Part shown: piece after piece, positions 7,610 through 36,241 of the stretch
How positions within the stretch are numbered: the stretch's first letter is position 1
Layout of the letters: each line of letters opens with the position of its first letter
Source: Patescibacteria group bacterium
GTDB lineage: Bacteria > Patescibacteriota > Microgenomatia > Daviesbacterales > UBA10151
Reading direction: 5' to 3'
Length of the DNA: 52,008 nucleotides
Assembly: GCA_038064895.1 (NCBI GenBank)
Contig: JBBTSA010000014.1
Coordinates: 9,962-61,969, forward strand
The notes under the pieces: model-generated
What the model saw: the letters and a program-made list of their open reading frames with translations, nothing else
What the model was told of the DNA's origin: nothing
Database searches by the model: none
Program-made: the position numbers and the translations under genes

Positions 7610-8552
7610 AAAGTTTTACAAGCTCCATTATATTTATTGGCCTGTTTGGCTGAACATGCTCAAAAAGATCAGAAATATGGTAAGCAGCCACTTGATCTTT
7701 AGGCATAGCCTCATAAAGTTTAATAGACTGCGTATATGGAACATATGTATCTGATTTATCATGAAGAATAAATATTTTTGCCTTAAAATCCGAAACAAAT
7801 TCTTTTGGAGAATACCCTTTAAGCCTATTGGCATCTTTAGAATCACTGGTCACAGCAGAATCTGTTGCTACTCCTTTTGCTGCAAGAAGTGTCATAGCAT
7901 GATTTATAGCATCTTGGTGCGGCTTCCATGAAGTTTGGTTACCACGAAGTGGCAAGCTTTGCTTATACAATGCTAAAATATAATCAAAAATATCATAATA
8001 TCCTCCGAAAAAGACTAAAGAGTGTACCTTATCTGCAATTTGAGGATTAGATGAGACAACAAAAGCTGTAGATGAACCAACTGAAAAACCCACAAACGAG
8101 ATTCTTTCAGGATCCGTTTGTGGCAAGCCTTCAAGATATTTAAAGCCTTCAATAAAAGTTCCCGGCTCCTCTGGTAAACTTTCTCCCTTATCCAAAACCT
8201 CAAGCCTTGGCCAAAAAGTTATATACCCAAGTCTTGCCATAGTTTGAGCAAAATGCAAAAGGATGAGTTTATCTTTTTCCGAAGTCTTAACACCCATAGC
8301 TAAAATTACTCCGGAGTCGGGTCCTGGGGATACTGGTATAAATAAATCTGCAACAACTTTTCCGTTTTTAGTTTCAAACCCCTTCTTATCATGAAAAGGA
8401 GCCAAAGTTACAAGGTTTAGTGGTTTTATAGGTATTTGGGGGAATTCCTCTGTAATAAAAAGGATAATTTTTAGATGGGTTATAAGTTGTTTTTGAAGGA
8501 TAATTCCCAGCAAAAGTGCTGTAACTATTAAAACAATTATTAGTCTTTTCAT
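7575..8552 (-). CDS. alpha/beta hydrolase (dienelactone-hydrolase-like), secreted
   Basis: 325 aa. N-terminal signal/TM, nucleophile elbow GFSVGSS, C-terminal His region (LFEHV). Confidence 0.6.
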   Translation of the reverse strand: MKRLIIVLIVTALLLGIILQKQLITHLKIILFITEEFPQIPIKPLNLVTLAPFHDKKGFETKNGKVVADLFIPVSPGPDSGVILAMGVKTSEKDKLILLHFAQTMARLGYITFWPRLEVLDKGESLPEEPGTFIEGFKYLEGLPQTDPERISFVGFSVGSSTAFVVSSNPQIADKVHSLVFFGGYYDIFDYILALYKQSLPLRGNQTSWKPHQDAINHAMTLLAAKGVATDSAVTSDSKDANRLKGYSPKEFVSDFKAKIFILHDKSDTYVPYTQSIKLYEAMPKDQVAAYHISDLFEHVQPNRPINIMELVKLYGFLYKVFYVL

Positions 8553-9176: not shown

Positions 9177-9977
9177 TTAGATACTCTTAGCTACCTCTAT
9201 CAGCTCATCCAATGAAAGTTTGGTTTTTTTAGCATCAGGTGCCGCACCCGAGCCGCAAATTACCATATGGTGGGACTGGTGCAGAAACCAGGAAGCATCT
9301 GAGTCTAAACTTTTAACCTTTTCATAGATTTCAGAGATATCTTTTTGGGGAGCAAAATACTGGACTGAAGAATGCTTTGGATCGACCATTAAATACAAAT
9401 CTCCGTCCTGCTCCCTACAAAATTCCCTATTTATAGTTTCTGAAGAAACTGCATATCCTTTGCCAAATTTAGATTCAAATTCAACTGCCTTTTCCCAGTC
9501 CAAAATAGATTGCTCTTTTCTTTTTAAAACTTCCAAAACCCTGTCCAGGATTTCTGCTCCTAACTCAACAGCTTTTTTAGAACTTTCATCTTTCCCATCC
9601 AAAGGCCTGATAAAAGACTGTATAGAAAACTCATCAAATTCGGCACTGGGTGCTTTCCCTGTATCCACAAGCTGATTCCATTCAACAAGTTTTTCCAGGG
9701 CTTTAACAGTTATTTCATCAGATGGAATTTTCCTATTTACTTTTAGCTCTTGATAAACTAAAGTTCCGGCACAAGTTTCCAGCCCTTCTTTATGCTCATC
9801 AAATTTGCCTCCCCCAGTACCTATATAAATCCTATCCTCAGTCTCATCAGCCACATTATGGGAAGCTGAGATAAATGCTAAAGAAGCATCAAAAAAATCA
9901 TGATTAAATTTTTTCAAAAGCCAGATTCCAAAAATATCATCCAAATGTGGGTTAATATGAGTTACCAGGGTTTTCAT
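9177..9977 (-). CDS. hypothetical protein (possibly MYG1/UPF0160-like metal-dependent hydrolase)
   Basis: 266 aa. THINPHLDD near the N-terminus and GTGGGKFDEHKE resemble the His/Asp motifs of that family. Weak, from memory. Confidence 0.35.
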   Translation of the reverse strand: MKTLVTHINPHLDDIFGIWLLKKFNHDFFDASLAFISASHNVADETEDRIYIGTGGGKFDEHKEGLETCAGTLVYQELKVNRKIPSDEITVKALEKLVEWNQLVDTGKAPSAEFDEFSIQSFIRPLDGKDESSKKAVELGAEILDRVLEVLKRKEQSILDWEKAVEFESKFGKGYAVSSETINREFCREQDGDLYLMVDPKHSSVQYFAPQKDISEIYEKVKSLDSDASWFLHQSHHMVICGSGAAPDAKKTKLSLDELIEVAKSI

Positions 9978-9994
9978 GATAAGATGAGTATATC

Positions 9995-10930
9995 ATGGCT
10001 ACCTTTAAAAAACTTCTATTTGGGCCTTTATTTCTACTTACCTTTACCTTCTTAATTTACCAGCTTAAGACTAACTTGGGTTCATATGAGGTAATTTTTT
10101 CTTTTTCCGCCGCCATTTTAGTCCGACTCCTTGTTTTATCGGGGCTAGTCTGTCTTTCCTCATTTTTATTTGTGCTTTTTGTAAGCTTTTCTTCTGATTG
10201 GAAAATAGTTTTGCCAGTTGCTGCTTTAGCCTCAATTTTACCCATAATTTTTATGAAAGATGCTTCCGGGCTTATTCTTGGAATAGGTCTTTTATTAATC
10301 TTACTTTTAACTTTCTTAACTTTGGAAAATACACTAAAAACTTACCTTAACTTTGAACCAGCTTCTATTTTTGGGCCATCAATTAGACATACGACAACGC
10401 TACTGCTGCTGGTTTTCTCCTTTACTTACTTTTTATCTATGAATAAAATCATTCAAACTCAAGGGTTTGCAATTCCTGATTCTTTAATTGATACTGCTTT
10501 GAAATTTACCCCGACTCAGTCGGGGTTTACAGACACTCCACAAATTGGGCAGGAAGAACAAACACAGACTACTCTTCCACAGATTAGCCAGGAACAGATT
10601 GATCTTTTGAAGCAAAATCCGGATCTTCTAAAACAATCCTGCCTGGATCCTGCTATTTTAGATACCTTAAATAAACCAACAACTAAAACAAATTCTCAAG
10701 ACTTAGTTAAAGAAGCTGTTAAAAGCCAATTGCAAAATTTTATTAAACCATATTTAGGTTTTATCCCAGCAATTATGGCCATACTTTTATTTATTACTCT
10801 TCAATCTTTAACGTCTTTTATAAATTTACTAATCTATCCTTTTCTTTGGATTATATTTTATATTCTGGAGAAATCTAAATTTGTTACTTTTACTACTGAA
10901 ATGAGGCCAGTTAAGAAAATGGTAATTTAA
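9995..10930 (+). CDS. integral membrane hypothetical protein
   Basis: 311 aa. Multiple TM helices separated by a polar Q/T-rich segment. Confidence 0.6.
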   Translation: MATFKKLLFGPLFLLTFTFLIYQLKTNLGSYEVIFSFSAAILVRLLVLSGLVCLSSFLFVLFVSFSSDWKIVLPVAALASILPIIFMKDASGLILGIGLLLILLLTFLTLENTLKTYLNFEPASIFGPSIRHTTTLLLLVFSFTYFLSMNKIIQTQGFAIPDSLIDTALKFTPTQSGFTDTPQIGQEEQTQTTLPQISQEQIDLLKQNPDLLKQSCLDPAILDTLNKPTTKTNSQDLVKEAVKSQLQNFIKPYLGFIPAIMAILLFITLQSLTSFINLLIYPFLWIIFYILEKSKFVTFTTEMRPVKKMVI

Positions 10931-29941: not shown

Positions 29942-30619
29942 CTATTTACTAGCAAGACCACTAATCCATCCCCTAGTTTTATTAAGTAGTTCACTACTCT
30001 TACGTACTCTGATTCTCAATACCCCGTAATACTTATCTCTGTTAGAGTAATTTCTTAGCCAGGTTGATCTATGGTAAAAAGGCTTTTCAAATTGATTTAG
30101 TGGTATATTTGTTATCCTAGACCAAAAATTTTTGATTTCTCCAGTCCTATCCCTATGAGATTCATTAAACTCGGTTCGTAAAATGAAATCTTCTGATTTA
30201 ATCCTAATAGCCTTTTTAAACCATTTAATCATAAATTTGATCATTTTTGGATCTGTGTTACAAAAACCCAAACGTTTCTCTTTCAAGCTCTTAAACCCCT
30301 CCGCCCAGTAAAGAGAAAGACCTACCAAGAAAAATTCTTTATCTGTTAGATTGCTAATCTCTGCCTTTGACTTCTTCATAATCTCTGCAACTTTTATGAG
30401 TGACTTTTGATGTTTAATCTTTGCAAGTCGACGCAAATGAGAAATTCTAGCCCTACTTTTTAAAAGATTTTCGATCTGTTTTGGAGATAATTTTATCGGT
30501 TTACACCACGAGCTGGCCGTGGCTGGACTTATGCTTAGAAGTTTTGCTATTGCACGGATACTTTTACCTTTTCTCCTTAAATCTAACGCTTTGTTATATT
30601 CTTCAATCTTTCGTATCAT
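29942..30619 (-). CDS. HTH-domain protein with a LAGLIDADG-like motif (possible free-standing homing-endonuclease-like protein)
   Basis: Resolvase-type HTH (GKSIRAIAKLLSISPATASSW), then FLVGLSLYWAEGFK, which resembles a single LAGLIDADG motif. I chose the start at Met26. The nuclease call is tentative. Confidence 0.4.
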   Translation of the reverse strand: MIRKIEEYNKALDLRRKGKSIRAIAKLLSISPATASSWCKPIKLSPKQIENLLKSRARISHLRRLAKIKHQKSLIKVAEIMKKSKAEISNLTDKEFFLVGLSLYWAEGFKSLKEKRLGFCNTDPKMIKFMIKWFKKAIRIKSEDFILRTEFNESHRDRTGEIKNFWSRITNIPLNQFEKPFYHRSTWLRNYSNRDKYYGVLRIRVRKSSELLNKTRGWISGLASK

Positions 30620-30711
30620 GGAATGATAGGATGTATTTCTATTATCCAATAGTTCCAATAATATTGTCAATAGGCATTGACATATAGTCCGCATGAGGCT
30701 AAAATAGACAA

Positions 30712-30976
30712 TGCGGGGAAGTGTAACGGTTGCACGGGAGGCTCAATTTGGGCCCATTTAAGAGTAATCTTTTATGAGAACTTGGCTATATCGGTGAAAC
30801 CCTGAGCAAGTCGAAGGGTAATACCGAGGGAAGGATGTACTATACAGTACGTCCCCTGTAGAGACTACACGCCGAGCCCCTGAGTTTATCGAAGGGTGAT
30901 GATATAGTCCTACCCTTGCAGGAATGCAAGAAGGTGCATAATCTCCAGGCAGTAGGCTCAATTCCTACCCCCGCAA
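30712..30976 (+). tRNA. tRNA(CAU) interrupted by a group I intron (exons 30712-30743 and 30937-30976)
   Basis: The spliced 72-nt product folds as follows: acceptor TGCGGGG/CCCCGCA (same as the E. coli initiator stem except U1-A72), D stem GTGT/GCAC with GG loop, anticodon stem GGAGG/TCTCC, loop CT|CATAA, T arm GTAGG-CTCAATT-CCTAC, discriminator A. Confidence 0.8.
30744..30936 (+). ncRNA. group I intron (compact, IC3-like), 193 nt, no internal ORF
   Basis: 5' splice site after U33, which forms a U-G pair in P1 (30740-43 with 30751-54). P2 30759-64/30769-74. P3 30781-85/30872-76. P4 30792-95/30823-26. P5 30800-03/30815-18. P6 30827-30/30854-57. Conserved GTAGAGACTACACG at 30858-71. P7 30862-67/30905-11 with one bulge. 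P8 30878-81/30893-96. P9 CTTGCA-GGAA-TGCAAG at 30915-30. Terminal G at 30936. Confidence 0.8.
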
Positions 30977-31111
30977 CAGCGCACCATACGGTGCACTGCT
31001 GTCGCCACTCTAAAAGAGATACTTTGGAATATGATGAAGGTCCGATAACAGTAGTGCGCGTTGAGATGCGCCGAATGGCGCGTCTCCACCCCTTCTTGGT
31101 AGAATTAAATA

Positions 31112-31375
31112 ATGAGCTTTTACTATGTCTACGTTCTTCAAAGCCTTAAGTTCGATTGGATTTATGTAGGATCTTCAGCTGATTTGAGAACAAGATTTAA
31201 AAATCATAATGATGGAGAAAATCTGTCAACAAAAGGATACAAACCCTTTAATTTAATTTTCTATGAAGCCTATCTTAGTAAAAAGGATGCTTTAAGAAGA
31301 GAGGAATATTTTAAAACTACTAAAGGTAAAACTACATTAAGGACCATGTTAAAAGAATATTTCAAAAACAAGTAA
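31112..31375 (+). CDS. GIY-YIG nuclease family protein (small)
   Basis: 87 aa. YYVYVLQS...WIYVGSSADLRTRFKNH..., ALRREEYFK. Confidence 0.8.
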   Translation: MSFYYVYVLQSLKFDWIYVGSSADLRTRFKNHNDGENLSTKGYKPFNLIFYEAYLSKKDALRREEYFKTTKGKTTLRTMLKEYFKNK

Positions 31376-31415
31376 TCCTGTACCGAATGGTACGGGAAAG
31401 TGTTAAACTAAAATT

Positions 31416-32666
31416 GTGAACCAAAAAGGATTTGCACCAATTTTTGTTTTGATTGGAATTTTAGTTTTAGCTCTTATAGCAGGAGGGGTATTTTATTTAG
31501 GAAAAATAAATAATACTTCACCAGGTACTCCTTCAAAAACAGAATGGAAGGGTGTAATTTGGAATGGTAAAGGGTTTATAACTGTAAATTCCAAGGGTGA
31601 GATAGTAAAGGACCAAAATAGAAACGTTAATTCAGTTTTACCTCCAGGAATGAAGTCAAATTATATAGTTAAAAATTTCACTAGTATAAGTAACAATGGT
31701 GAGGATATATTTAAAAATGCTGTTCAGCTTCTTGATGATGGAAGACTTATATTTATTGGTTCTTCTGATATAGGTACAGCAATAAGAGAAGATACACTTT
31801 ATAGCTGGAAGTTTAATGCTCAAGAGCTACCCAAGCCATTAATGAAGTTACCTCAAGAAAAGAAGATTCGAAGATTCACCTTTTCACCTGATAAGAAAAA
31901 AGTGGCAATAATTTCAATAAGTGCAGATGAAAAAGAATTGGATAAGGAATTAGACATAATCCATATATTTAATGTTGATACTCAACAACTAATTACAAAT
32001 TTAAAAATAGATAGAGAGAATGAAGATACGGGGTTAGATAATAGATTAGCTTGGAGGGGTAATTATCTTTATGTATTTACTACTTTTCAATTTAGAGTGT
32101 TTGATATGAATAATAATCAATTATTCTATACTTCTGATAAAAGTGAGTCAGGTCCAATGGGCGATAATGTAATAATTTCTCCAGATGGATCTAAATTTAT
32201 ATATATGCCTAAACAGAAAGTGGAAGTACTTCAAGCGCTCATAAATCCAATTGAGTTAAAAATGCCTGCGCTTATAAATTATAATGCTTTTTCATTTGAT
32301 TCCAAAAAAATGTTGATTCAAAAATCTAAAAAAACTGATGGTCCCCTAATAGGAGATGAAATTGGTGAATTAAATTTAGAAAATGGGGAAGTTGATATTA
32401 TTGGATCCATAGAATCATTGGCATCTGAACTACAGTTAGATTATTCTACAAAAGAACGTTATTTTTTACTACCATTTATTGTTTACAATCCCGCAGCAGA
32501 TTATATTATTTTTCCTATTGTAGCTGATGGCAATGCTCTAAGATTTGTAGATCTTTATAGCCTAAAGTTAGATGAACAACATGCTAAAACTAATTTACTT
32601 GAAGATGTAGAGATGATTACTACTCTAAGAGACTTTGCTTTTCTCGGTTGGTATAAAACAGACTAG
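31416..32666 (+). CDS. membrane-anchored protein with PD40/TolB-like beta-propeller repeats
   Basis: 416 aa, GTG start. N-terminal anchor FAPIFVLIGILVLALIAGGVFYLG. Repeated FSPDKKKVAI / ISPDGSKFIY / FSFDSKKMLI motifs. Confidence 0.6.
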   Translation: MNQKGFAPIFVLIGILVLALIAGGVFYLGKINNTSPGTPSKTEWKGVIWNGKGFITVNSKGEIVKDQNRNVNSVLPPGMKSNYIVKNFTSISNNGEDIFKNAVQLLDDGRLIFIGSSDIGTAIREDTLYSWKFNAQELPKPLMKLPQEKKIRRFTFSPDKKKVAIISISADEKELDKELDIIHIFNVDTQQLITNLKIDRENEDTGLDNRLAWRGNYLYVFTTFQFRVFDMNNNQLFYTSDKSESGPMGDNVIISPDGSKFIYMPKQKVEVLQALINPIELKMPALINYNAFSFDSKKMLIQKSKKTDGPLIGDEIGELNLENGEVDIIGSIESLASELQLDYSTKERYFLLPFIVYNPAADYIIFPIVADGNALRFVDLYSLKLDEQHAKTNLLEDVEMITTLRDFAFLGWYKTD

Positions 32667-32684
32667 GAGGTAATGTGGTTATAT

Positions 32685-32720
32685 ATAAAAAGTTCTAACA
32701 GCATCCTCCCCCCGCAACAC
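32685..32720. repeat. 36-nt direct repeat ending in a copy of the tRNA(CAU) 3' end
   Basis: ATAAAAAGTTCTAACAgcatcctccCCCCGCAACAC. Positions 32704-32719 match tRNA 30963-30978 at 15/16 nt. Confidence 0.75.
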
Positions 32721-32769
32721 AGTGGTTAATTAGGCTATGGTAATAACCTAATCATTTAATAAGATTGTT

Positions 32770-33495
32770 TCATGAACGAGCTATAACAAGCTCTCGTTCA
32801 GGTAAAATTGGTATTGTTGGTTCCTCGTAATCCCCATCAAAGAACTGATGAAATGTTAGCTCAATACCACGGAATTTCTTAGCATCCGCAGCCAACCAAA
32901 CAAACGTTATTCGGCCAAAATCGGCATTGCCTTCCGCATCACTTTCAATCTCTACCTCACCAATATCTTTTAGATTAAAAAGGTTCTTTTCTCTGACTAT
33001 AACTGGATTACCTTCTTCAAGTGATTGCATTCTTCTGGCAACTGCTGGAGCGCTTAAATTCCAGGCAGCCATATATTTTTCCTTATTAAGTTTTACATCC
33101 ACATAAGTATTTAAAAGTCTGGCATATTCAGAAGGGCTGCGAAGTGGGAATCCAAAGCGCAATATATACGGTATCTCATCATATTCCATATCCTGAAAAG
33201 TATTTCCTTCACGGAAGACTCCCTTGAATATGACATCACCAAATGGCTTTTCTACCTGGAAACGCCCATTATTTACAAGCATTTGAGCCATTGCCTCTGG
33301 ATTTTCACTAATAATATCAACGCGCCCCTCAATGCTATGAAGTGATATTCTTCTCCTGAGTAAAAGTGTATGACTATATCTTTCTGGGATATCCATAACA
33401 TTCTCTCCCTTTTTAGGCCAATATGCCCTGCGCATCCTTGCAAAAGGCTTAATCGGTACATCCATTGGGACTACTAGAAGATTTTCTGCTGACAT
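32770..33495 (-). CDS. hypothetical protein (single-gene cassette between two direct repeats)
   Basis: 241-aa ORF with no motif recognised. Confidence 0.55.
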   Translation of the reverse strand: MSAENLLVVPMDVPIKPFARMRRAYWPKKGENVMDIPERYSHTLLLRRRISLHSIEGRVDIISENPEAMAQMLVNNGRFQVEKPFGDVIFKGVFREGNTFQDMEYDEIPYILRFGFPLRSPSEYARLLNTYVDVKLNKEKYMAAWNLSAPAVARRMQSLEEGNPVIVREKNLFNLKDIGEVEIESDAEGNADFGRITFVWLAADAKKFRGIELTFHQFFDGDYEEPTIPILPERELVIARS

Positions 33496-33546
33496 AGCCT
33501 GATATTAAAACACATTCAGTTCGTTGAATCAAATAAACTAAGCTAA

Positions 33547-33582
33547 ATAAAAAGTTCTAACATCGTTCCATCCCCGCAACAC
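33547..33582. repeat. 36-nt direct repeat, second copy
   Basis: ATAAAAAGTTCTAACAtcgttccatCCCCGCAACAC. Shares both flanks (16 nt + 11 nt) with 32685-32720. Confidence 0.75.
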
Positions 33583-33637
33583 TTCGACTCACTCCGTTCG
33601 CTCAGTGCAGGCACAGATTCGCTCCGCTCAATGCAAG
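33583..33637. repeat. GC-rich element (TTCGACTCACTCCGTTCGCTCAGTGCAGG type)
   Basis: A GC-rich block immediately after the direct repeat. It overlaps the ftsB-like stop codon and seems to supply part of that ORF's odd C-terminal tail. Confidence 0.55.
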
Positions 33638-33978
33638 AATACCCTCAACCACCCTAACCAATTAGGTAATCTGGGCTCCGAGCTTGAGGTTACTCCTAAA
33701 ATCTCCTTTATCTTCTTATCAGGAATAATTACAAGCGTCTCCCCCTCCTTTCCTAAACCAAGCTTATTTCTGGCTATTTCCTCTACAAATTCAGGCGATT
33801 TTATTTCAGATAATCTTTTTTTAAGCTCTTTATTTTTAACCTCTGATATAAAAACCCTATCAGCTGCCTGGTTTAATCTTTCAGAAACATTTAAAGTATC
33901 CGTTATTTGTTTAATAAGATTAAAGCTGATAAAGCCTACAACTAAAATTATTAAACCTATTGTAAATTTTTTAATCAT
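33628..33978 (-). CDS. septum formation initiator family protein (FtsB/DivIC-like)
   Basis: 116 aa. N-terminal TM, coiled-coil, EFVEEIARNKLGLGKEGETLVI signature. The last about 20 aa look like read-through into repeat DNA. Confidence 0.75.
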   Translation of the reverse strand: MIKKFTIGLIILVVGFISFNLIKQITDTLNVSERLNQAADRVFISEVKNKELKKRLSEIKSPEFVEEIARNKLGLGKEGETLVIIPDKKIKEILGVTSSSEPRLPNWLGWLRVFLH

Positions 33979-34035: not shown

Positions 34036-34899
34036 ATGACCGCTCTTAAAGATGCCCACAAACAATTTATTGACTATCTTAAGGGCAAAAATCGTGCCTC
34101 TGCTACTATCTTAGCCTATGGGAAAGACATTGATCAACTGGTAGTCTATTTGGAGAACTTAGGCAAAACCGATCCAGACACAGTTAACACTGAAGATCTC
34201 CAAGCTTTCATGGAAAAATTATCAAAAGAAGCTTATACCCCAAAATCAATCTCAAGAAAAACAAATTCAACTAAAACATTCTTTAAATTCCTAAAAACCC
34301 AAGGATTTGCTAATGAAGATGCGGCAGCAGGACTTTTACATCCCAAATTTGAGAATAAGCCTCCAAGAATATTAACAAAGCTTGAATATAGAGCCTTAAG
34401 GGATGCTGCCAGAACAGATGTTAGAATGCTTGGTGTTATTGAACTCTTACTCCAAACTGGTGTTAGGATTGGTGAACTTGCAAAACTTAGAGTTGAAGAT
34501 ATAGATTTACAAAATGGGACAATCCATGTTCCCCTATTTGAAGATACAAGAGAAAGAACTATCCCATTAAATACTCCTGCTGCAGAGGCAGTTAGAAAAT
34601 ATTTGGAAATAAGACCCAAAACTCAAAACCATGCACTTTTTATTACTAAAACAGGAAGACCCCTTTTAATTAGAAATATTAGGGCTGCAATTGATAGATA
34701 TTTTAGAATTGCAGGAATAAAGATGGCTAAAGTTAATGACTTAAGACACACCTGGGTTGCACATCAGCTTCAATCAGGAGTATCTTTGGTAACTGTTTCC
34801 AAGCTTGCAGGGCATAAAAGATTATCAACAACTGAAAGATATCTTCAATTCATCCAAAACCATAATGGAGATAGTAAGGTAAAACTGGAGGAATTATAA
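34036..34899 (+). CDS. tyrosine recombinase, XerC/XerD family
   Basis: 287 aa. N-terminal SAM-like core-binding domain. Catalytic region RIGEL.., LRHTWVAH, GHKRLSTTERY (R..HxxR..Y). Confidence 0.85.
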   Translation: MTALKDAHKQFIDYLKGKNRASATILAYGKDIDQLVVYLENLGKTDPDTVNTEDLQAFMEKLSKEAYTPKSISRKTNSTKTFFKFLKTQGFANEDAAAGLLHPKFENKPPRILTKLEYRALRDAARTDVRMLGVIELLLQTGVRIGELAKLRVEDIDLQNGTIHVPLFEDTRERTIPLNTPAAEAVRKYLEIRPKTQNHALFITKTGRPLLIRNIRAAIDRYFRIAGIKMAKVNDLRHTWVAHQLQSGVSLVTVSKLAGHKRLSTTERYLQFIQNHNGDSKVKLEEL

Positions 34900-36127: not shown

Positions 36128-36169
36128 AAGTAACCTGTCCTTCGGACAGAACGAACCAGGAACCAGTTG

Positions 36170-36241
36170 TAGGCCCGGAAGGAGTCGAACCCTCGTCATC
36201 ACTGTATAAGAATGAGGTATTAACCGTTATACGACGGGCCT
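36170..36241 (-). tRNA. tRNA-Ile (anticodon UAU)
   Basis: Hand-folded 72-nt cloverleaf: AGGCCCG/CGGGCCT acceptor stem, U8, D stem GTAT/ATAC with GG loop, anticodon stem TCATT/AGTGA, loop CTTATAC, T arm GAGGG-TTCGACT-CCTTC, discriminator A. Confidence 0.85.

Follow-up and report, generated by a model that had tools for sequence, protein, structure and literature searches.

In the composite islands of the staphylococcal cassette chromosome (SCC), SCCmec, ACME (arginine catabolic mobile element) and psiSCC units lie in tandem at the 3' end of rlmH, installed via the large serine recombinases (LSRs) CcrAB and CcrC (10.1101/336396, PMC3900703, PMC13739063). The array described here occupies positions 30979-33582 of a 52,008-nucleotide stretch of DNA (referred to as the window; contig JBBTSA010000014.1, positions 9,962 to 61,969) from a groundwater Daviesbacteria genome of the candidate phyla radiation (CPR), which comprises 1,007,788 bp in 41 contigs and is 97% complete. 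It consists of two segments inserted one behind the other at the 3' end of an initiator-like tRNA(CAU) gene (tRNA-fMet), and we put the probability at roughly three in four that these are two recombinase-less insertion units, installed by an LSR that uses the tRNA 3' end as its attachment site (attB). The comparison set contained 96 genomes of the family from 63 genera (labelled G), and further contigs and loci of relatives, metagenome contigs among them, are labelled L.

In its logic the array appears closest to the SCC composite islands with their psiSCC units and to accretion of the type known for cis-mobilisable elements (CIMEs), a resemblance in working and not in family membership. As in SCC, LSR insertion would take place where a single conserved housekeeping gene has its 3' end, the units are in tandem with short direct repeats, and recombinase-less units stand beside recombinase-bearing ones or replace them. 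Unlike SCC, where the target is rlmH (orfX), the target here is tRNA-fMet, the units measure 0.35-1.7 kb where those of SCC reach tens of kb, the LSR and Ccr are not orthologues, the LSR gene reads across the att site, and the host, a CPR bacterium, has a genome of 1 Mb. CIMEs are reportedly units that accrete at the tRNA or fda att sites of streptococcal integrative and conjugative elements (ICEs), in work by Pavlovic, Bellanger and colleagues. Their hallmarks are found here also, in that the units are flanked by att sites, lack recombination genes and either stand in tandem with an autonomous element using the same att site or take its place; CIMEs, however, depend on tyrosine integrases and are deletion derivatives of ICEs, whereas many units here have conserved non-coding inverted-repeat ends of their own.

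Known serine integrases target mostly protein-coding genes or intergenic sites. Unlike these phage-type enzymes, the LSR in question would use the T-arm and acceptor end of tRNA-fMet as attB, with an attP that overlaps the 3' end of the integrase gene, but the outer motif of attP lies 5 bp further from the centre than that of attB, as in the att sites of A118/LI, Bxb1 and phiC31. A tRNA 3' end as target, with the gene restored, is shared with tyrosine-integrase tRNA islands, although a Phage_integrase-family gene is absent inside the units. Integrons consist of an IntI-type integrase gene by attI and small, promoter-less, co-oriented cassettes, each with an attC. Arrays of small cassettes and conserved imperfect inverted-repeat ends recall this arrangement; unlike in integrons, crossover would fall in a tRNA-like core and not in the GTT of attC, the cassette genes lie on either strand, and the Xer-like protein encoded nearby fails the integron-integrase model. 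Integrative mobile elements exploiting Xer (IMEX) and dif modules are units bounded by 28-bp dif-like XerC-spacer-XerD sites.

The tRNA gene, the three sites and the sequences flanking them are as follows:

30712-30976, + strand: initiator-like tRNA(CAU) gene, split by an intron (exons read from the sequence, intron by Rfam)
30969-30978, + strand: site 1, core copy 1, CCCCGCAACA, made up of the acceptor 3' strand, the discriminator and CA (repeat search; flanks compared with G007, G088 and L190)
30979-30997, + strand: hairpin GCGCACC-ATAC-GGTGCAC ('trailer type 2'), directly 3' of the tRNA
32685-32745, + strand: site 2, attP-type left half ATAAAAAGTTCTAACA GCATCCTCC CCCCGCAACAC (32685-32720), then element-type right arm CACAGTGGTTAATTAGGCTATGG
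33544-33582, + strand: site 3 (putative attR), attP-type left half TAAATAAAAAGTTCTAACA TCGTTCCAT CCCCGCAACAC
33582-33615, + strand: native tRNA trailer, type 1, CTTCGACTCACTCCGTTCGCTCAGTGCAGGCAC (by comparison with G011)

Segment 1 spans 30979-32709 and has a GC content of 0.30, and cassette 2 spans 32720-33571 with a GC content of 0.40, the contig mean being 0.37. The core CCCCGCAACA occurs at 30969, 32710 and 33572, all on the + strand, where no copy is expected (none in 100 shuffles), and the whole genome contains no copy beyond those three. The 16-mer TCCTACCCCCGCAACA (30963-30978) recurs with 15/16 matches at 32704-32719 and 13/16 at 33566-33581. A longer direct repeat joins the two distal copies (32682-32720 vs 33544-33582; 39 nt at 82% identity), to which AAAAAGTTCTAACA is confined genome-wide. 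Among 43 tRNAs, a downstream copy of the last 14 nt (at most one mismatch, within 12 kb) was found for this tRNA and tRNA-Tyr only. An earlier note on this DNA, made from the sequence without database searches, had described the tRNA-end copies and the longer repeat of the distal two, and both descriptions hold. On sequence grounds the three sites would read as LSR sites, namely attB-like, attP-like and attR: site 1, taken together with the hairpin 3' of it, resembles an attB that is unoccupied, and site 2, whose right arm begins like the P' arms of LSR elements (CACAGTGGTA...), appears to form an attP-like junction joining two cassettes.

The gene order around the locus is shared across the family and runs nucleotidyltransferase, tRNA-Met, HIT, GIY-YIG, in some a LAGLIDADG-like gene, tRNA-fMet, a variable stretch, ftsB, an Xer-like gene and a VirD4-like gene. 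In G011 the site is empty: an intron-less tRNA is followed directly by CACTTCGACTC..., a type-1 trailer, and then by ftsB. When the flanks of the window were joined by script and aligned to this empty site, they matched at 80% over 145 nt, unbroken across the junction, and the sequence past the third core copy is therefore the native tRNA trailer, displaced by 2.6 kb by the two segments.

The motif TTCTAAYA-N10-CCCGCAAC was found in 15 of the 96 family genomes (13 of 63 genera) in one or two copies each, and on about 35 Daviesbacteria-like metagenome contigs, nearly all copies lying downstream of tRNA-fMet; a reversed control gave one match. Other Daviesbacteria and other genera have different cassettes at tRNA-fMet that share these ends. 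Cargo varies among genomes, even inside one genus, and toxin-antitoxin pairs, a methyltransferase-like gene and GIY-YIG genes recur in different arrays and at different array positions. Many small cassettes (0.35-1.2 kb) of different genera share a non-coding left arm, CACAGTGGTAGTTTAGATTGTTAGAAC, which is not the 3' coding end of an LSR and which forms a 9-nt inverted repeat with the right arm, the arm end being the reverse complement of GTTCTAACA. The earlier note had claimed site-specific insertion at the tRNA 3' end, which the empty site in G011 and the other cassettes with the same ends support, and had set against it a generic terminator motif, which the repeat is not, given that the genome has no other copy and that an empty site exists.

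In L195, L250/L211, L187 and G058 the tRNA is inverted, its 5' end abutting ftsB, and the array runs the opposite way, away from xer; the position of the array therefore goes with the tRNA 3' end and not with the Xer gene. Inversion of tRNA-fMet, with or without an array, relative to ftsB-xer was seen in G003, G016, G058, G086, L187, L195 and L250, and in G056 and G086 the tRNA faces away from arm and core copies, which are on the opposite strand. This suggests that the inversions are site-specific, between att sites.

Autonomous elements of 5-7 kb lie at tRNA-fMet in at least four independent relatives. In each, the LSR gene abuts the tRNA and reads across the core, and the far end (attR) is a half-site of the form (G)TTCTAACA-N9-CCCCGCAAC. 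The element on the 744-kb contig of G103 runs for 6.06 kb from the tRNA to ...ATAGGTTCTAACAGCCTCCCGCC-CCCGCAAC-ACACTTCGAC, followed by ftsB and xer, and its first gene encodes a 590-aa LSR on the opposite strand, the open reading frame (ORF) continuing through the core into the tRNA (...NTTVLRG). L233/L294/L295 (5.1 kb), L293 (a 6.8-kb unitig) and G006 are laid out likewise, and in G006 a Toprim protein adjoins the LSR that abuts the tRNA. The attR half-sites are GGTTCTAACAGCCTCCCGCC-CCCGCAAC in G103, TTTCTAACATCATCCCACC-CCCGCAAC in L233 and GGTTCTAACAGATTCCCACC-CCCGCAAC in L293. The element LSRs consist of Resolvase, Recombinase and Zn ribbon domains; those of the fMet type are mutually 71-83% identical and match generic Resolvase/Recombinase models and the phrog_95 integrase only. 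An fMet-type LSR, defined by an identity of at least 70%, is encoded in three family genomes, G103, G006 and G016, and all three carry the cassette-end motif, compared with 12 of the 93 others (p ~0.003, our hypergeometric calculation).

The half-site at the end of the cassettes also forms the attR of these LSR elements, and the distal 'tRNA-end copies' are therefore the attP-derived half of attR. The view of the earlier note that copies of the tRNA end delimit the segments thus stands for the ~11 nt that are truly shared, but the distal copies are attP half-sites carried by the elements, with five extra bases. Of 41 distinct cassette ends, 38 have xTTC and CCCGCAA spaced 15 nt apart, and of 35 tRNA T-arms, 31 have a spacing of 10 nt, the consensus of the 41 cassette ends being atAAaA.gTTCTAAcAtCaT.CcAcCCCCGCAACac and that of the tRNAs GGTTCgAcTCCcaCCCCCGCAAC. 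Rutherford et al. showed that in serine-integrase attB the motif for the zinc-ribbon domain lies 5 bp nearer the centre than it does in attP (PMC3783163), and the left half-sites here conform to this rule. The T-arm and acceptor 3' strand of tRNA(CAU) form the left half of an attB-type site, and the cassette arm mimics the T-arm, with five extra bases. An alternative derivation of the arm, as an inverted copy of the 5' half of the tRNA, was rejected; the similarity extends into the 3' strand of the T-stem and not into the D-arm.

In the proposed mechanism, an LSR would recognise the 3' end of the initiator tRNA as attB and install both units, each ending in a half-site that imitates the T-arm and acceptor strand with xTTC placed 5 bp further from the core, the geometry that lets LSRs distinguish attP from attB. 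The symmetry of the inverted-repeat cassette ends would place the crossover near A73-C74. The cognate fMet-type LSR is not present in the 97%-complete genome, and the units, presumably inserted by such an enzyme, would now be stranded.

Several observations weigh against this proposal. No LSR gene lies in 30979-33582 or nearby, and the genome's two LSRs, on contigs C10 and C5, share just 29-32% identity with the fMet type. A free circular form of attP was not found, and the viral collection contained no relative of the LSR. The right half-sites are without a clear 5-bp rule. Within the window, the outer motif of the right arm of cassette 2 is degenerate, and an element-type left arm was not found in segment 1 (best local alignment to eight P' arms 19; shuffle mean 20). 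Canonical LSRs, moreover, recombine attP with attB only, unless a directionality factor is present, and tandem arrays therefore need an extra assumption, either relaxed pairing or cassettes that restore attB, which is the weakest step of the argument. Relaxed site pairing has been reported for the Ccr recombinases.

The neighbouring XerC/D-like gene (34036), to which the earlier note had pointed as a candidate enzyme, offers another route, integron-like or Xer-dependent capture, in which the gene beside ftsB would insert and excise cassettes as in IMEX or the dif modules of Acinetobacter. It lies 450 bp past the array, tRNA-fMet adjoins ftsB and xer in all relatives, tandem arrays with repeated cores are readily built by tyrosine recombinases, and the Xer-like protein is the less canonical of the two tyrosine recombinases in the genome (160 vs 240 bits with XerC/D models). 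On the other hand, all retrieved loci that cover the gene, the one with the empty site included, have it at 62-79% identity and in synteny with ftsB, the arrays follow the tRNA 3' end away from xer in L195, L250, L187 and G058, and the repeat arms are the ends of LSR-bearing elements. The protein reaches 76.5 bits with the integron-integrase model TIGR02249, for which the cut-off is 265, and the cassette genes are on either strand and not co-oriented. A palindrome screen of the genome (11-(6-8)-11, with TAA/TTA inner ends) gave no convincing dif candidate, nor a convincing dif-like 11-6-11 site at the repeats; the reverse complement of the arm, GATGTTAGAAC, is loosely like a XerD arm, by eye only. 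The Xer-like protein, the candidate of the earlier note, is probably not the cassette recombinase, and capture of this kind seems very unlikely. Decay, which we regard as unlikely, would make the segments what internal deletions left of full LSR elements, and as small units they would never have moved: a recombinase is lacking and nothing points to current mobility, with four metagenome contigs from the same aquifer 100% identical to the window over the covered parts, a homologue of the 241-aa protein of cassette 2 neighbours an LSR in a full element, and cassette 2 has a right arm that is partly degenerate. Independent deletions, even if repeated, would not, however, be expected to yield the common non-coding arm CACAGTGGTAGTTTAGATTGTTAGAAC that small cassettes share across genera as a 9-nt inverted repeat with the right arm, and the same cargo is found at differing array positions.

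Homing is suggested by three small GIY-YIG genes that adjoin tRNA genes in the window, by a hairpin and GIY-YIG module that recurs directly 3' of tRNA or core copies in several genomes, and by the lack of an element-type left arm in segment 1; the GIY-YIG and the upstream LAGLIDADG-like gene would have moved segment 1 by break repair, and the repeats would be co-converted flanks. Yet homing does not make direct repeats of an attP half-site, a nuclease gene is absent from cassette 2 and many other cassettes, and segment 1 ends on the right in a typical attP-type half-site, so that homing would explain at best the left part of segment 1; as an account of the array we consider it extremely improbable. 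Chance, or a motif that serves regulation or termination and is unconnected with mobility, can practically be dismissed: the fully shared core is short (10-11 nt), but no copy would be expected at random, the genome has the motif nowhere else, and conservation across genera is confined to this locus, with variable cargo and an empty site.

If LSR-mediated insertion is accepted, a further and rather doubtful possibility concerns the units with inverted-repeat ends (GTTCTAACA ... core ... TGTTAGAAC), which might tentatively be seen as dedicated non-autonomous gene cassettes for serine recombinases, a counterpart of integron cassettes, with arrays growing via the attB-flank-like left hairpins of some cassettes. 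A small cassette, once circularised, would carry an inverted-repeat site of ~52 bp with its centre near A73-C74, and the left-end hairpin would restore attB at the tRNA-proximal site after each insertion. If this is true, the integrase alone would suffice to excise segment 1, and new insertions could still be taken up at the tRNA site; the tRNA core joined to CACAGTGG is the junction expected after loss of segment 1.

The genes of the two segments and their neighbours beyond the array are:

31112-31375, + strand: GIY-YIG protein, 87 aa, first gene in segment 1 (Pfam PF01541, E 4.8e-15)
31416-32666, + strand: 416-aa protein with N-terminal membrane anchor MNQKGFAPIFVLIGILVL..., segment 1 cargo
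32770-33495, - strand: 241-aa protein, sole gene in cassette 2
33628-33978, - strand: ftsB/DivIC-like gene, conserved chromosomal neighbour outside the array (Pfam PF04977, synteny)
34036-34899, + strand: Xer-like tyrosine recombinase, 287 aa, conserved core gene ~450 bp past the array

This gene content agrees with the earlier note, except that its assignment of a PD40-repeat protein was not borne out: the best family match of the 416-aa protein is a sub-threshold one to Beta_propel (E 0.004), beyond which Pfam, NCBIfam, PHROGs, PADLOC and PDB sequences gave no match. Segment 1 has a typical attP-type right arm, and on the left it begins with an attB-flank-like hairpin; G007, G088 and other genomes have hairpins of this sort beside the tRNA or ftsB, and sequences of the same trailer-type-2 kind lie directly 3' of the tRNA or of a core copy in G007, G081, G088, L234 and L190. 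Orthologues of the GIY-YIG protein (83-86% identity) are always encoded 3' of a core copy and hairpin. On the metagenome contig L190 the tRNA is followed, as in segment 1, by the hairpin, an 85%-identical GIY-YIG gene, a gene for a membrane-anchored protein and the right arm, and segment 1 therefore behaves as a cassette type of its own. A left-arm candidate picked by eye at 31396-31420 was dropped, the best local alignment of segment 1 to P' arms being no better than that of shuffles. Hairpins with GAAT/ATTC loops lie at 31066-31087 and 31379-31397, either side of the GIY-YIG gene.

Cassette 2 starts on the left like the element arms (CACAGTGGTTAATTAGGCTAT; 17/21 matches to a known arm) and has a typical right arm. 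Its 241-aa protein has no match in Pfam, NCBIfam, PHROGs or PADLOC and belongs to a family of 13 clusters, none of them named; the AlphaFold2 model is poor (pLDDT 52). A homologue with 63% identity is encoded two genes away from an LSR integrated at tRNA-Gly.

LSR homologues are present in 54 of the 96 family genomes. The two in the genome of the window (C10:410-2063 and C5:46633-48288; 509 and 549 aa) are both at contig ends, with ORFs that extend across tRNA-Lys(ctt) and tRNA-Ser(tga), the tRNAs being encoded on the opposite strand, an architecture like that of the tRNA-fMet elements. For LSR elements at tRNA-Gly, tRNA-Ser and tRNA-Lys, the DNA examined contained no second copy of the tRNA end. 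In L261, which belongs to another lineage, a 37%-identical LSR reads through a P arm with no tRNA nearby, and the case is ambiguous. A sequence, AACAGGTTCTAACATCGTCCAAGCCCCGCAAC, with ~100 conserved nt behind it occurs in other CPR lineages (L232 at 8123-8340 and 9965-10141, L244, L240, L243, L260, L194 and L204), again with no tRNA nearby; the opposite strand of its tail reads ...LPLQxAxRTxDWxxxREELxxLAPLVAGLGRC-stop, and Rfam and Pfam searches with the conserved tail gave no match. The two copies in L232 bracket a gene for a 340-aa membrane-anchored protein. These loci may be remnants of recombinase 3' ends together with att sites.

The tRNA(CAU) gene comprises exons at 30712-30743 and 30937-30976 by our reading, separated in the anticodon loop by an intron of 193 nt (30744-30936) that is of group I (Rfam RF00028 Intron_gpI, 68.7 bits); ARAGORN misses the gene because this intron splits the anticodon loop. 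The acceptor stem, UGCGGGG/CCCCGCA-A, is of the bacterial initiator type, and the genome encodes just one further CAU tRNA, which is elongator-like. Two CAU tRNAs genome-wide and a tRNA-Ile(UAU) at 36169-36241 of the window would fit AUA decoding without a lysidine tRNA. Orthologues without the intron exist in relatives, and its presence is polymorphic in the family: it is found, for example, in G001, G006, G009, G017, G056, G081, G086, G105 and G111, and is absent from G003, G005, G007, G011, G015, G023 and G103. The gene upstream of the tRNA (29942-30694), which combines helix-turn-helix and LAGLIDADG-like parts, was detected solely beside intron-bearing tRNA copies, and some intron-bearing loci, such as those of G017, G081 and G105, have no LAGLIDADG-like match.

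Look-ups with the exact proteins retrieved four metagenome contigs from the Hainich H51 aquifer, each 100% identical to the window wherever the two overlap. In Logan assemblies of two runs from this aquifer, breaks fall at window positions 30948, 30 nt short of the end of the tRNA core, and 33490-33518, and contig L293, from another sample, starts and ends exactly at both att sites of its LSR element. Judged from contig ends and not from reads, this is the pattern that coexisting occupied and unoccupied alleles would give.

At a second tRNA of the genome, tRNA-Tyr on contig C38 (3845-3928, - strand), a 1.86-kb islet with MazE/MazF-like and Fic-like genes lies on the 3' side, and ends in an imperfect copy of ~40 nt of the variable arm, T-arm and acceptor end, which is longer than the repeat at tRNA-fMet and of another type. 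The trailer sequence CTTCGACTCACTCCGTTCGCTCAGTGC (window 33582-33608) is a short dispersed repeat near other tRNA genes (C18:1852-1878, C39:3584-3606) and is found in several relatives too.

For annotation of these genomes, an ORF labelled 'recombinase family protein' that traverses a tRNA encoded on the opposite strand can be taken as an element junction. The more than 40 attP-type and 35 attB-type half-sites amount to a natural series for one LSR clade in which the 5-bp shift is directly visible, and the tRNA-fMet 3' end that serves as target varies hardly at all among bacteria. As integrases with a predictable landing site, such LSRs would be of practical interest. For the organisms themselves, the array would represent a route by which tiny CPR genomes with few obvious mobile elements swap small accessory genes, including toxin-antitoxin pairs, nucleases and membrane proteins, at one hotspot behind the initiator tRNA.

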